NCBI GenBank assembly: GCA_038889075.1
Contig: JAWAHS010000017.1
Coordinates: 9,483-30,752 of the forward strand
Length of the DNA: 21,270 nt
Direction: 5' to 3'
Origin: Ignisphaera sp.
Lineage (GTDB): Archaea > Thermoproteota > Thermoprotei_A > Sulfolobales > Ignisphaeraceae
Under the pieces are notes generated by a model that saw only the letters and a list, made by a program, of their open reading frames with translations, had not been told where the DNA came from and searched no databases. A program made the position numbers and the translations under genes. This document shows, in pieces, positions 4,737-6,839 of the stretch; the first letter of the stretch is position 1; every line of letters begins with the position of its first letter.

Positions 4737-5966
4737 ATGGTCTGTCCAAACGGCTACATACTAGCTGTTGAAGGTCTTGCTAAGATATGTATTCCGGATC
4801 CCAATCTGTATAGGAGGGAGGATGGTCTATACGAACCATCGTGGGCACCGGTATTCTACAATCCTAGAATGGTTGAGAATAGGGACATCTGCGTAGCGGT
4901 ACTAAGGGTAGAGCTGGGAAGAGGTAGATGTACAGCTGTAGTGGATCCCCTTGCTGCTACAGGTGTAAGGGGTATAAGGATAGTATTGGAGGCTGGACTA
5001 CCTAAAGGAGCAACCGTTTATATGGGTGATATATCCCCGGATGCCATCGAGATTATGAAGCGTAATATAGAGTTAAACGGTGTAGTGGAGGGAGTTTGTG
5101 TAAGGCATGCCGATGCTAACGAGCTTATGCACCAGCTAGCTAAAAGAGAGGGTGTAGCAATTAGCTATATAGATATAGATCCTTTCGGTAGCCCTGCCCC
5201 CTTTACACACACGGCACTAGATTGCGTTAAGAGATATGGTGTAGTTGCACTAACGGCAACGGATCTAGCGGTTCTCGAGGGTAGGTATAGGGATAAGCTG
5301 CTTAGGAGATACGGTGTAGTGGGTACTAGGGTATTACAGTCAAGGGATATAGCATTAAGGGTTCTACTATCGTTTGTTATGAGGATTGCTGCTGTATACG
5401 ATAAGTATATCGAGCCACTGCTATCCTACGCTATGAACCACTATGCAAGAGTCTATGTTAGAGTATCTAGAGGAGGTACGAGAGCGGGTGAGGTTCTCGA
5501 TAGCTGTCTGGGAGCTGTACGATGCTGTAGCAGATGTGGATACTACTATATGCACCGTATTGAAGATACTGTGGATAGAGCTGCACGGTGTCCAGTATGT
5601 GAAGGGAAGCTGGAACCGATATACCCTGTATGGATATGCCCTACATCAAGTAGCGAGTATCTTGCAGAACTCGTGGAGATCGCCAAAGGGATGCATTGGT
5701 TGAGGGAGAGCTCTAGACTGCTACTGGGGGGCATCTACAGAACGTCTATGCAAAATGCATTAACAGCTAGACTAACATATATAGCCAAGGCCATTAAGAC
5801 GGATACGCCACCTGTTCAAAGCATTATAGATTGTCTTATACAAAAGGGGTTTACAGCAGCGAGAAGCTATACATATAGTGATGGAGTTGTAACAAGCGCT
5901 CCAATAGATGATGTAGTGGAGTGTGTAAGGAGTAGAGCACTAGGTAGATCTATGGATAGAAGTTAG
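4737..5966 (+). CDS. trm1: tRNA (guanine-26,N2)-dimethyltransferase
   Basis: APVFYNPRMVENRD, DPLAATGVRGIR, IDIDPFGSPAPF, LTATD and a CxxC...CxxC zinc motif. Confidence 0.93.
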   Translation: MVCPNGYILAVEGLAKICIPDPNLYRREDGLYEPSWAPVFYNPRMVENRDICVAVLRVELGRGRCTAVVDPLAATGVRGIRIVLEAGLPKGATVYMGDISPDAIEIMKRNIELNGVVEGVCVRHADANELMHQLAKREGVAISYIDIDPFGSPAPFTHTALDCVKRYGVVALTATDLAVLEGRYRDKLLRRYGVVGTRVLQSRDIALRVLLSFVMRIAAVYDKYIEPLLSYAMNHYARVYVRVSRGGTRAGEVLDSCLGAVRCCSRCGYYYMHRIEDTVDRAARCPVCEGKLEPIYPVWICPTSSSEYLAELVEIAKGMHWLRESSRLLLGGIYRTSMQNALTARLTYIAKAIKTDTPPVQSIIDCLIQKGFTAARSYTYSDGVVTSAPIDDVVECVRSRALGRSMDRS

Positions 5967-6003
5967 AGTGGTTGCCCGTGTCCGTTAGCTAGGTTTTTTG
6001 GCT

Positions 6004-6241
6004 GTTTTTGGTTTTTCTGGACACGGGTTAATCCCACCTGTTTATCCCCTTTCTCCCCGCCTACGGCTCCAGGGGGCCGCCGGGATTCCCAGAACCATCG
6101 GCGAAGAGCAGTTCACAGAGCCTCGTCCCTCGCCAACAACTCACCGGCTCACAGGCTCCCAGCTACTAGAACACGTAGATGCTTATATGCCTTTACGTCG
6201 AACCCATGGAAATAACTCAAATAACCAGAAAAACCAAAAAC
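6004..6241. repeat. Perfect 17-bp inverted repeat (6004-6020 GTTTTTGGTTTTTCTGG / 6225-6241 CCAGAAAAACCAAAAAC)
   Basis: Direct reverse-complement comparison; the arms enclose a GC-rich core. Confidence 0.85.
6072..6160 (-). ncRNA. Candidate structured small RNA (long GC/GU rod), family not recognised
   Basis: Minus strand GGGAGCC..GCCGG..GAGUUGUUGGCGAGGG pairs with CUCUUCGCCGAUGGUUC..CCGGC GGCCCCC; the many G-U pairs work only on the minus strand; TATA-like ATATAAG lies ~22-28 nt upstream; locally high GC. Confidence 0.45.
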
Positions 6242-6425
6242 TAAACAACATACAGACAGTCCAGCTCAAGTGTATCACTAGGTAGACTATTGTGTATCTG
6301 AGAAGCATCTTGCAATTTATTGATGTTGCCGAGCTTCATAGCTAAATGCATACACTCTTATTAGCCTACACAGAGTATATCTACTAGACACAGCTGCACA
6401 TTAATGGCTGCAAGGTTAGTGGATC

Positions 6426-6839
6426 ATGGAGAGCGCAACCCGTCTTAGCGATGAAGAGGTGCTCGTCTACAACATCATTAAGCAGGAGACGAGAGTGTCT
6501 GGAGGGATACTCCAGTCGAAATTGAGGGAGAGGGATGAGCTCAGATCTATACAGTCGAGAAGGCTATATACAATAGTGAATAAACTTGCTAGAGCTAACC
6601 TCATTAAGAGAATAGCCATAAACGACAATGGTCAGACAGCATACCTTCTACAGGCAATCGATCAGCGTAATCAGATTGGAGAGCAGCGGATATCCATTCC
6701 AGATTCGGAGATCTTTGCAATACCATGTAACGGCTGTAGAAATCTCTATATGTGTGGCGAGGGGAGGGTCTACAACCCTCTAAAGTGTCCATACCTGACA
6801 AGATTCCTAATGGAGAGAGCATACACTGTAAAGACCTAG
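6426..6839 (+). CDS. tfeB: TFE beta subunit / RPC34(C34)-like protein (winged helix + 4Fe-4S domain)
   Basis: N-terminal wHTH (GGILQSKL...IVNKLARANLIKR) and C-terminal IPCNGCRNLYMCGEG...PLKCPYL four-Cys motif; located between trm1 and tfb as in Sulfolobales. Confidence 0.85.
   Translation: MESATRLSDEEVLVYNIIKQETRVSGGILQSKLRERDELRSIQSRRLYTIVNKLARANLIKRIAINDNGQTAYLLQAIDQRNQIGEQRISIPDSEIFAIPCNGCRNLYMCGEGRVYNPLKCPYLTRFLMERAYTVKT

Follow-up and report, generated by a model that had tools for sequence, protein, structure and literature searches.

The window, a stretch of 21,270 nt from an Ignisphaera sp. contig, carries a GC-rich island at positions 6000-6149 (GC 0.58-0.65, against 0.36-0.49 in the flanks), beside trm1 and in the vicinity of nop5, fibrillarin and gar1. 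A first-pass annotation had read this island as the gene of an unrecognised, rod-shaped small RNA, possibly bound by L7Ae and transcribed from the minus strand out of its own promoter. The landmarks on which that reading was built are present in the sequence: ATATAAG at 6188-6182, GGGAGCC from 6160 on the minus strand, two occurrences of CUGUGA, and an imperfect dyad around the TATA box at 6198-6173, matching at 8/10 arm positions. With the box at 6188-6182 and GGGAGCC at 6160, the predicted start therefore falls about 22-24 nt past the box. The RNA also proved to be unrecognised, as proposed. Rfam searched at gathering scores gave 0 matches in the whole window and ARAGORN predicted 0 tRNAs there, while a permissive Rfam scan (E<=10) of 5900-6450 returned four chance-level matches scoring 12.4-16.7 bits, well below their gathering scores (37-45). 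Neither the gathering-score scan of the window nor the permissive scan contained a match to SRP, RNase P, C/D, H/ACA or RAGATH-18 RNA. By eye, we also dropped an intron-containing tRNA, 5S, SRP, RNase P, H/ACA and C/D RNAs, group II intron domain V and a hammerhead-like core, each of which lacked required pairings or motifs.

The fold and the 3′ boundary had to be redrawn. The nested rod proposed first can be drawn, but it fails on covariation in a 20-sequence alignment of homologues: its three helices are paired in 74.8% of cells, a level reached by 448 of 500 shuffles, its two outer helices in 50.7% and 68.9%, and its 16-bp helix has no pair changed on both sides. These 93 nt (6070-6162, minus strand) have a folding energy of -34.2 kcal/mol, and their shuffles average -34.14 (z -0.02; 95 of 200 shuffles at least as stable). 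The true partner of the 3′ strand of the 16-bp helix lies downstream of 6072. That the helix can still be drawn (86.7% of cells paired) is due only to the likeness of its 5′ strand to that partner; the helix could be an alternative conformer. Since the conserved RNA continues to 5967, the coordinates first proposed take in roughly its first half and no more.

The RNA as now delimited is about 194 nt long and has three helical domains (Table 1), an organisation unlike the terminal box arrangement of C/D or H/ACA RNAs. In alignments A3/A5 its helices are paired in 92.3% of cells, compared with 39-48% for slid controls, and 22 pairs are changed on both sides, compared with 4-7. The covariance model R1 scores the window copy at 212.6 bits; in alignment A6, which holds 40 model-aligned sequences, 88.1% of cells are paired and 39/45 pairs change on both sides, counts that are inflated by the fit of A6 to the model's own structure. 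Folded as a single sequence, the full 194 nt are unremarkable (z -1.22; 21 of 200 shuffles are as stable). Helix B (20 pairs) is paired in 95.9% of cells, with 9 pairs changed on both sides (18/20 in A6) and three consecutive swapped pairs in loci L033/L062, and it is also found in the minimum-energy fold of the full RNA. For the two stems of the terminal domain, 97% and 90% of cells are paired and 8 pairs show changes on both sides; the A-rich loop that they enclose (6018-5984) varies in length within the family. Weaker than these is the 5′ closing helix, paired in 78.1% (A3/A5) and 70.0% (A6) of cells and with some pairs changed on both sides. We assign the RNA to the minus strand because it contains many G-U pairs, because its K-turn-like motifs can be read only there, and because a TATA-like hexamer lies upstream in 26/34 family members, 22-40 nt before the model start and in both of the gene arrangements described below. 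The earlier proposal of a minus-strand structured RNA, absent from Rfam and with a TATA-type promoter of its own, is supported. Transcription would begin at or beside G6160. In one RNA library, contigs cover 5995-6151 and 6201-6260; being strandless, devoid of transcript ends and open to DNA carry-over, they give a weak hint of transcription.

Table 1. Features of the repeat and of the RNA that it carries (window positions)
Feature	Positions	Strand	Description and basis
Non-autonomous (MITE-like) element	5967..6262	.	296-bp repeat; BLAST against 40 loci, copy flanks, metagenome contigs
Conserved structured RNA	5967..6160	-	~194 nt, read as an omega/reRNA-type scaffold; alignments A3/A5, covariation, model R1
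5′ domain	6117..6159	-	Tentative closing helix, 6159-6154 with 6122-6117, enclosing K-turn-like motif A
K-turn-like motif A	6128..6147	-	2-bp stem, 3-nt bulge, G.A/A.G at 6142-6141 and 6131-6130, 3-bp hairpin (6140-6138 with 6134-6132)
Long central hairpin (helix B)	6053..6108	-	6108-6088 pairs with 6073-6053; supplants the 16-bp helix proposed earlier
Terminal stem with K-turn-like motif B	5967..6038	-	Outer stem 6038-6034/5971-5967, bulge 6033-6031, inner stem 6027-6019/5983-5975
Putative guide segment	5947..5966	-	Flanking DNA in a would-be read-through transcript; antisense to the last trm1 codons and stop; length of 20 nt assumed
TATA box of the RNA promoter	6182..6188	-	ATATAAG, read from the sequence; TATA-like hexamer in 26/34 family members
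Imperfect dyad	6173..6198	.	Centred on the TATA box
Inverted repeat, arm 1	6004..6020	.	Perfect, 17 nt; kept in close copies, only partly in L004 and L021
Inverted repeat, arm 2	6225..6241	.	Perfect, 17 nt; within the remnant coding end of the TnpB-like gene
Left end, remnant 3′ end of TnpB-like gene	6210..6262	.	Sense on the + strand; 96% identical to L015 1820-1871
12-codon mini-ORF, deletion scar	6206..6244	+	MEITQITRKTKN*; start of the small RHH gene fused to the last TnpB-like codons

A K-turn consists of a helix, a 3-nt bulge, tandem G.A/A.G pairs and a second helix. At the level of the family this arrangement recurs twice in the RNA, flanked each time by covarying helices. Among 37 sequences, the four G.A/A.G positions of motif A are G in 33/33, A in 32/33, G in 32/33 and A in 33/33 non-gap cells, and both its hairpin and its stem covary. 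In motif B, position 1b is G in 34/34, 2b is A in 35/35 and 1n is A in 34/34, while 2n is G in 20 and A in 13. The suspicion of a K-turn in the first-pass annotation was thus well placed as to the type of motif, though not as to the apical position that it named, and L7Ae may possibly bind these two sites.

The RNA lies in a repeat. The two end points of the 5967-6262 sequence recur in 7 other copies, and immediately beyond GACTGTC... and ...CAACCAC[T/C] the 8 copies have unrelated flanks; likewise, metagenome contigs part ways at 6261 and ~5968, and their summed depth is far greater over the element than over its flanks. The right end adjoins the trm1 stop codon (5964-5966). BLAST found three good copies in the same genome (100%, 84% and 74% identity), and R1 found seven matches there, at 216.9, 212.6 and 162.1 bits and four at 31-35 bits. 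Matches at E<=0.01 occur in 36/325 genomes of the order. These observations bear directly on the proposal that the sequence encodes a host RNA, bound by L7Ae and serving the adjoining RNA-modification and transcription genes. The K-turn-like motifs would suit such a role and the neighbours are indeed trm1, nop5, fibrillarin and gar1, but other copies lie beside unrelated genes (for a polysaccharide-synthesis protein, ribosomal protein S8e, a PLD-like protein and a sugar-isomerase-type barrel), and in the closest two relatives trm1 adjoins the same 137-aa gene without the element. Furthermore, only 2/16 congeners match it, yet two other families of the order hold the best foreign copies (86-90% identity over 137-151 nt), and Rfam yields no C/D or H/ACA match. 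With the RNA located in a mobile element that occurs in many copies and in unrelated surroundings, the functional tie to trm1, nop5, fibrillarin and gar1 loses its support, although the description of the neighbourhood itself was correct. We regard a host-encoded small RNA as highly improbable, and the location beside these genes is most likely accidental.

At their ends, the 8 copies compared show neither terminal inverted repeats nor target-site duplications, so that the element is not a classical DDE-type MITE. Two candidate repeats were rejected: the perfect 17-nt inverted repeat is subterminal and conserved only in part, and the direct repeat 5931-5948/6269-6286 is not adjacent to the ends, its first copy being native trm1 sequence. 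No shared motif was seen in the 4-5 nt outside the left end of the 8 copies, and thus no TAM-like target is evident, although the first conserved bases could hide one. A search for an empty site matching the exact ends found intergenic DNA too diverged to align, both in the closest congeners (Trm1 69% identical) and in the genome pair G237/G240, and no contig in four metagenome runs bridges 5966 to 6263, gaps in the coverage of these runs carrying no evidential weight. Phage and plasmid collections gave no DNA match to the element.

A full-length relative, L015/L058, shares both ends with the window element. Between the counterparts of window positions 6210 and 6159 it has two inserted ORFs, one of 53 aa and RHH-like and one of 362 aa, both on the strand opposite to the RNA. 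The window element is an internally deleted derivative of an RHH plus TnpB-like insertion element. Its left end matches a segment of L015 that overlaps the end of the 362-aa ORF (766-1854), and a mini-ORF marks the deletion scar; the full-length protein has the C-terminus ...VTQITRKTKN*. Protein-less derivatives of IS200/IS605 elements are palindrome-associated transposable elements of MITE-like character. The window element resembles them in sharing both ends with the full-length, autonomous element, in having its coding content deleted and in its many copies; it differs from them in keeping a complete promoter-plus-RNA gene.

The 362-aa protein matches the TIGR01766 'TnpB-related' profile (35.6 bits; cut-off 32), and its structure model (pLDDT 86.5) matches Cas12f, Cas12k and the TnpB proteins of ISDra2 and ISFba1 with E values of 4.7e-9 to 4e-6; as modelled, the partner protein has a Cas12f/TnpB fold. 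Among 14 aligned sequences, the RuvC-I Asp and RuvC-II Glu are kept, the usual RuvC-III motif is replaced by an invariant ..LDKH.. (His for Asp), and zinc-finger cysteines are absent throughout. The profile matches of the small gene fall below threshold (RHH, E 0.0055; MazE, E 0.073), and in other subfamilies it is MazE/AbrB-like. These are features of the clade RIIIr-4, or RHH/MazE-TnpB, in the account of Altae-Tran et al. 2023 (PMC10691335): an archaeal TnpB that has His where RuvC-III usually has Asp, lacks a zinc finger and is immediately preceded by a small gene of RHH or MazE/AbrB type. Judged by sequence and modelled fold, the partner protein, encoded outside the window, fits that clade. 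Homologues of the protein are attributed by their sources to Vulcanisaeta souniana JCM 11219 and Caldivirga sp. MU80. In the window's own genome, the protein genes are deleted in all copies found and a close TnpB-like partner is missing (best match 29% identical). Searched against phage collections, the protein matched nothing closer than the TnpB genes of four Thermus phages (26-29% identity).

We then compared the positions of RNA and gene across loci. R1 places the RNA next to a TnpB-like gene in 35/53 loci, so that the family has its RNA within a mobile element and beside a TnpB-family gene, the window copy having lost the gene. The RNA is upstream and antisense in 31 of the 35, with its 5′ end 168-385 nt from the gene match; this count takes in L109, where the gene is a fragment and the RNA only 43 nt off. 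In three loci (L067, L072 and L081) it lies 35-90 nt downstream on the same strand, and in one it falls within a chimeric gene fragment. R1 gave no RNA match in the other 18/53 loci; most of them are clipped at a contig end, the exceptions with complete flanks being L091, L095 and L110. From these comparisons, we take the RNA to be the companion of a TnpB-related nuclease gene, not a guide for host RNA modification.

The closest known RNA is the omega RNA or reRNA of TnpB (IS200/IS605, IS607; OMEGA), likewise a structured non-coding RNA inside a transposon beside a gene of the TnpB fold. A further likeness is that the scaffold reaches the transposon end, its last base being the last base of the element, and that conservation drops sharply there: the 8 copies diverge immediately past the terminal ...CAACCAC[T/C], two further subfamilies diverge after the terminal stem, and conservation accordingly stops right after that stem in three subfamilies. 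Such a drop serves as a criterion for the scaffold-guide boundary in PMC10278001. No T run occurs on the minus strand between scaffold and element end, and the adjoining flank may thus form a guide segment of a read-through transcript. Unlike the known TnpB arrangement, with the RNA at or after the tnpB 3′ end on the same strand, as seen here only at the three downstream loci, the RNA is upstream and antisense with its own TATA box at 31/35 loci, and it has no Rfam match. The reRNA of IS607 TnpB described in PMC11061315, which derives from RAGATH-18, offers a precedent in that an orphan structured RNA motif proved to be a TnpB guide RNA, although that RNA is bacterial and downstream of its gene, and has no sequence or model match here. 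The present arrangement also departs from the account of the clade in PMC10691335. There, the RHH/MazE-TnpB pair is described as non-mobile and as a likely toxin-antitoxin module, with the guide RNA expected, in section 16, in a long 3′ untranslated region; here, the pair lies in a sharp-ended element with deletion derivatives and near-identical copies across families, and at most loci the RNA flanks the operon on the opposite side.

The dyad on the TATA box raises the matter of control. Related subfamilies have the palindrome ACAGAAA..TTATAA..TTTCTGT at the same place, and Arc, an RHH protein of bacterial IS605-family transposons, binds and represses the transposon promoter (10.64898/2026.09.24.754181). 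As in that system, a small RHH gene lies inside a TnpB-carrying element, and here the palindrome surrounds the TATA box in the interval that separates the RHH gene from the RNA; unlike in that system, the promoter is archaeal, and repression is suggested by the analogy. The dyad is probably the operator of the RHH/MazE-type repressor of the element, whose gene is missing from the window copy. The same divergent layout, with the RNA pointing away from the operon across a shared palindromic promoter region, would also suit a regulator rather than a guide, that is, an antisense or decoy RNA, or the RNA part of an RHH/MazE-TnpB toxin-antitoxin module controlling the divergent RHH-TnpB operon. Section 16 of PMC10691335 proposes a toxin-antitoxin role for the gene pair, and solo copies could titrate the protein. 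However, the RNA does not overlap the operon mRNA, starting ~40 nt from the RHH start and pointing away from it; it ends precisely at the element boundary; a homologous RNA lies downstream of the gene in three loci; and the partner protein has, by its model, a full Cas12f/TnpB fold. On balance, a purely regulatory RNA seems unlikely.

It might also be argued that the conserved sequence acts as DNA only, as a structured transposon end whose single-stranded hairpin is recognised in trans by a transposase such as Y1 TnpA, with no functional RNA at all. The terminal stem does coincide exactly with the end of the element, the lack of terminal inverted repeats and target duplications is that of IS200/IS605, the chimeric locus L108 joins the same terminal sequence to a different TnpB-like C-terminus, and a Y1 transposase is encoded in 2/5 genomes examined. 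Transposon-end hairpins are, however, not known to approach a multi-helix structure of ~190 nt with many G-U pairs. Nor would a DNA end be expected to have a TATA-like box at a fixed distance in 26/34 members, nearly invariant K-turn-like G.A/A.G positions, a terminal stem loop varying between 20 and 50 nt, or a place in the classical guide-RNA position at three loci. In addition, genomes G000, G218 and G210 carry copies, and no Y1 gene was found there; the window's own genome is among those with no Y1 gene found. We give this possibility a slim chance, somewhat below that of a regulatory RNA.

Considering this evidence, we think it probable, if well short of certain, that 5967-6262 is a non-autonomous archaeal insertion element carrying an orphan, partly degenerate omega-type guide RNA gene. 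The full-length form carries a small RHH gene (MazE/AbrB-like in other subfamilies) and the gene of a TnpB-related RNA-guided nuclease, and the GC island would be the gene of the companion RNA. The TATA promoter at 6188-6182, set inside a palindromic operator, would drive a ~194-nt scaffold on the minus strand from ~6160 to 5967, composed of a 5′ domain with a K-turn-like motif, helix B and a terminal stem that holds the second K-turn-like motif and the A-rich loop of variable length. Transcription would then continue into the flank to provide a 3′ guide, as in TnpB omega/reRNAs, and the product is predicted to bind the TnpB-like protein. A literature search on TnpB, MITEs and guide RNAs, judged by titles, found no account of such an element.

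This interpretation explains a well-structured RNA family that occurs widely in hot-spring Thermoprotei, unannotated and without an Rfam entry, and it ties that family to a TnpB clade hitherto described by computation alone. If true, it would mean that the RHH/MazE-TnpB clade moves and is not a fixed toxin-antitoxin pair, that its guide RNA lies on an unexpected side and strand under its own promoter, and that a defined scaffold of ~194 nt is available for a compact (~360 aa) thermophilic RNA-guided nuclease, which is directly testable. Through the K-turn motifs, transposon guide RNAs may be connected with the L7Ae RNP machinery of archaea, a connection that can be checked. More speculatively, and on our own estimate rather doubtful as a whole, the clade may use a guide RNA unlike characterised omega RNAs, with an RHH-controlled TATA promoter of its own that is usually divergent, and with two K-turns that recruit host L7Ae into the nuclease RNP. 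Protein-less copies would then be 'guide-only' mobile elements that spread across families, borrowing or misleading the nuclease of full-length elements.

For the window itself, the island would be a decaying transposon relic and its RNA-modification neighbourhood a coincidence. The copy is most likely an orphan guide-RNA gene in decay, since its protein genes are deleted, the assembly holds no close homologue of them, and an otherwise invariant K-turn position is changed. That change is a U at 6030 in motif B, where 19/20 aligned sequences have G; the base of the family is found at this position in all contigs of three metagenome runs and in most of those of the fourth.

The first-pass annotation had placed a rod-shaped, minus-strand small RNA at 6072-6197 and read it as a novel, possibly L7Ae-bound sRNA within an RNA-modification/transcription gene cluster. 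Read directly, the minus strand does carry ATATAAG at 6188-6182 and a GGGAGCC start at 6160. The imperfect dyad around the TATA box (6198-6173) holds at 8 of 10 positions, GC content is 0.58-0.65 at 6000-6149 compared with 0.36-0.49 in the surroundings, and nop5, fibrillarin, gar1 and trm1 are present on either side, as had been stated. No Rfam family reached its gathering score across all 21,270 bases, a permissive Rfam scan returned four matches only, all at chance level, and no tRNA was found in the window. The 93 nt said to form the rod (6070-6162) have a folding energy typical of shuffled sequence (z -0.02; matched by 95 of 200 shuffles). The full 194-nt RNA also has an unremarkable single-sequence energy (z -1.22 for the minus strand, -0.69 for the plus strand), and the question of its fold is decided by comparative data.

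In a MAFFT alignment of 20 RNA sequences, 92.3% of cells are paired in the structure tabulated here, compared with 39-48% when the partners are slid, and 22 pairs are changed on both sides, compared with 4-7; none of 500 shuffles reached any of these measures. For 40 sequences aligned to R1, the covariance model of the RNA, which was built from 20 sequences, the paired fraction is 88.1% of cells and two-sided changes occur in 39 of 45 pairs, in an alignment that leans towards the model. The helices proposed in the first-pass annotation did no better than shuffles on the same 20-sequence alignment. The 3′ strand of its long helix is the 5′ strand of the central hairpin, and where it changes, the compensating change is in the downstream partner and not in the one originally assigned; the observation itself is real, but the fold was wrong and the extent too short. 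Two motifs, A and B, are what we take to be K-turn-like; the K-turn signature positions are almost invariant in the family, and both motifs may be bound by L7Ae. At 6030 the window copy carries U; G stands there in 19 of the 20 aligned sequences and in the other metagenome copies.

Features of the element, its RNA, the neighbouring genes and the weak matches in the same genome (G000)
Feature	Position	Strand	Remark
Element	5967-6262		296-bp repeat
RNA	6160 to 5967	-	about 194 nt
Closing helix	6159-6154 with 6122-6117	-	tentative
Motif A	6147-6128	-	small hairpin set between G.A/A.G positions
Central hairpin	6108-6088 with 6073-6053	-	20 bp
Terminal stem	6038-6034 with 5971-5967; 6027-6019 with 5983-5975	-	closed by a variable A-rich loop
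Motif B		-	3-nt bulge and G.A positions interrupting the terminal stem
Genes on one side: nop5, fibrillarin, HTH protein, NTPase, trm1	trm1, 4737-5966	+	
Genes on the other side: 137-aa protein, TFB, gar1	137-aa ORF, 6426-6839	+	137-aa protein has no Pfam match
Weak match	G000:C1:415701-415906		full-length; read directly, a decayed copy of the same RNA
Weak match	G000:C2:2044-2201		full-length; read directly, a decayed copy of the same RNA
Weak match	G000:C1:387299-387374		shorter; terminal-stem part of the model only
Weak match	G000:C1:339156-339230		shorter; terminal-stem part of the model only

BLAST found two further copies of the element in the same genome (84% identity over 266 nt and 74% over 152 nt). 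The covariance model gave seven matches in total, three strong and four decayed; the latter, at 31-35 bits each, together point to an old, eroding family. Across the order, 36 of 325 genomes match at E<=0.01, many of them at contig ends. The best foreign copies (86-90% identical) are from two other families; within the genus, matches occur in only 2 of the 16 other species. When a 901-nt stretch was aligned to all loci, seven other copies had the same two end points, 6261-6263 and 5966-5968, and the flanks of the eight copies are unrelated directly outside them. Contigs from four hot-spring runs accumulate over the element and part from one another at 6261 and about 5968. At its right end the element directly adjoins the trm1 stop codon. 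The two closest relatives, whose Trm1 is 69% identical, have trm1 next to the 137-aa gene, with the promoter-like upstream region that is conserved with this ORF, and lack the element. Neither a terminal inverted repeat nor a target duplication was found for the element, no shared target-adjacent motif was visible beside its left end, and no empty site could be aligned for fixing the ends. A host sRNA of the RNA-modification cluster is contradicted by the location of the RNA in a protein-less mobile element whose other copies lie in gene contexts unrelated to one another. Judged by its sequence, the object is a transposon-borne gene for a guide-type RNA.

Several other repeats were seen. A perfect 17-nt inverted repeat has one arm (6004-6020) within the terminal stem's A-rich loop, and its second arm (6225-6241) falls in what remains of the nuclease gene's coding end; close copies keep the repeat, L004 and L021 only part of it. 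An 18-nt direct repeat (5931-5948 and 6269-6286, 83% identity) brackets the element without adjoining its ends; its first copy is native trm1 sequence and the repeat is probably due to chance. At locus L018, a second, unrelated repeat of about 45 nt (L018:1405-1451) adjoins the right end of the element. It matches at least 13 places in the genome G240 at 84-93% identity, and similar sequence is present beside the L011 copy and at loose ends in run X4. This repeat may represent a further small mobile element, or else a site preferred as target.

At locus L015 (L058 is the same record), an additional 1.2 kb separates the two element ends; it lies between the points that correspond to 6210 and 6159 of the window. 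The insert carries a 53-aa ORF with sub-threshold RHH matches that overlaps a 362-aa ORF. Both lie on the strand opposite the RNA, which starts about 40 nt from the small ORF start, with two back-to-back TATA-like boxes between them. A 12-codon ORF in the window (6206-6244, +) fuses the start of the small gene to the last codons of the nuclease gene. By this comparison, the window copy is an internal deletion of an L015-type element. L011 is a different deletion derivative, which retains the 3′ part of the nuclease gene and has lost the RNA. The window's genome has no close partner protein (best match 29% identical) and no Y1 transposase was found in it, so its three copies are orphans. The full-length element at L061 has an insertion of about 200 nt within the terminal-stem loop of the RNA (L061:1993-2190).

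The 362-aa protein passes the NCBIfam model TIGR01766 'TnpB-related' (35.6 bits; cut-off 32). Its 353 database relatives, named hypothetical, transposase or TnpB-related at source, come from Desulfurococcales, Ignisphaera, Zestosphaera, Staphylothermus and Vulcanisaeta. Its predicted fold (pLDDT 86.5) best matches Cas12f, Cas12k and the ISDra2 and ISFba1 TnpB complexes in the PDB. In the protein alignment the Asp of RuvC-I and the Glu of RuvC-II are kept, the RuvC-III motif reads ..LDKH.. without variation, and zinc-finger cysteines are missing. PMC10691335 gives the same features for the TnpB clade RIIIr-4 and its RHH/MazE-associated archaeal members.

Among 53 loci from a genome-wide scan with the protein alignment, R1 found the RNA beside the nuclease gene in 35, an association that holds down to about 40% protein identity. 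In 31 loci the RNA is upstream and antisense, with 168-385 nt between its 5′ end and the gene match, which leaves room for a small RHH/MazE gene; this count takes in L109, a gene fragment with the RNA just 43 nt away. Three loci (L067, L072 and L081) have it on the gene's own strand, 35-90 nt after the gene, which is where TnpB guide RNAs classically lie; in L067 and L072 a TATA-like box directly follows the gene stop codon. One of the 35 is chimeric. The other 18 gave no RNA match; most are cut by contig ends, and L091, L095 and L110 gave none despite full flanks.

A TATA-like hexamer starts 22-40 nt before the R1 model start in 26 of 34 family members and is the centre of a palindrome in several subfamilies, which accounts for the dyad originally noticed. 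According to a 2026 preprint (bioRxiv 10.64898/2026.09.24.754181), promoters of bacterial IS605 elements are repressed by Arc, an RHH protein, which by analogy only supports the dyad as a putative operator.

Five observations fit an RNA of the omega/reRNA kind, with a 3′ guide taken from the flanking DNA: the scaffold ends on the last element base in three subfamilies, no T-run terminator occurs inside the element, the RNA has its own putative promoter, it co-varies with a Cas12f/TnpB-fold protein, and in some relatives it sits in the TnpB guide-RNA position. In the only RNA library that contains the sequence, contigs that carry neither strand nor ends cover 5995-6151 and 6201-6260. Unlike that of characterised systems, the arrangement is divergent, with a putative promoter for the RNA itself and K-turn-like motifs. 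It also departs from the expectation for RIIIr-4 in PMC10691335, in which a non-mobile toxin-antitoxin pair would have its guide within a long 3′ UTR. A possible kink-turn has been reported in the bacterial RAGATH-18 reRNA, and the literature found on TnpB with K-turns and L7Ae concerns IS110 and Nop5. The RNA is undescribed in the openly searchable article texts found on TnpB with kink-turn or L7Ae, RIIIr-4, TnpB with archaea and ribbon-helix-helix proteins, and TnpB with MITEs and guide RNA; judged by title, no paper on TnpB, MITEs and guide RNA was relevant.

In the subfamily whose RNA follows the gene, L067, L072, L076 and L099 have a distinct conserved block, rich in G+C, some 100-450 nt before the TnpB-like gene. 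Its long G-runs and C-runs could pair, and it may be the other transposon end or a further RNA. At L108 (L108:2501-2907), a chimeric gene fragment has about 70 RIIIr-4-like residues and then a different C-terminus with zinc-finger-like cysteines. It is followed by an RNA/terminal sequence, whose last bases are identical to those of the window element, and one transposon end may be common to different nuclease cargos.
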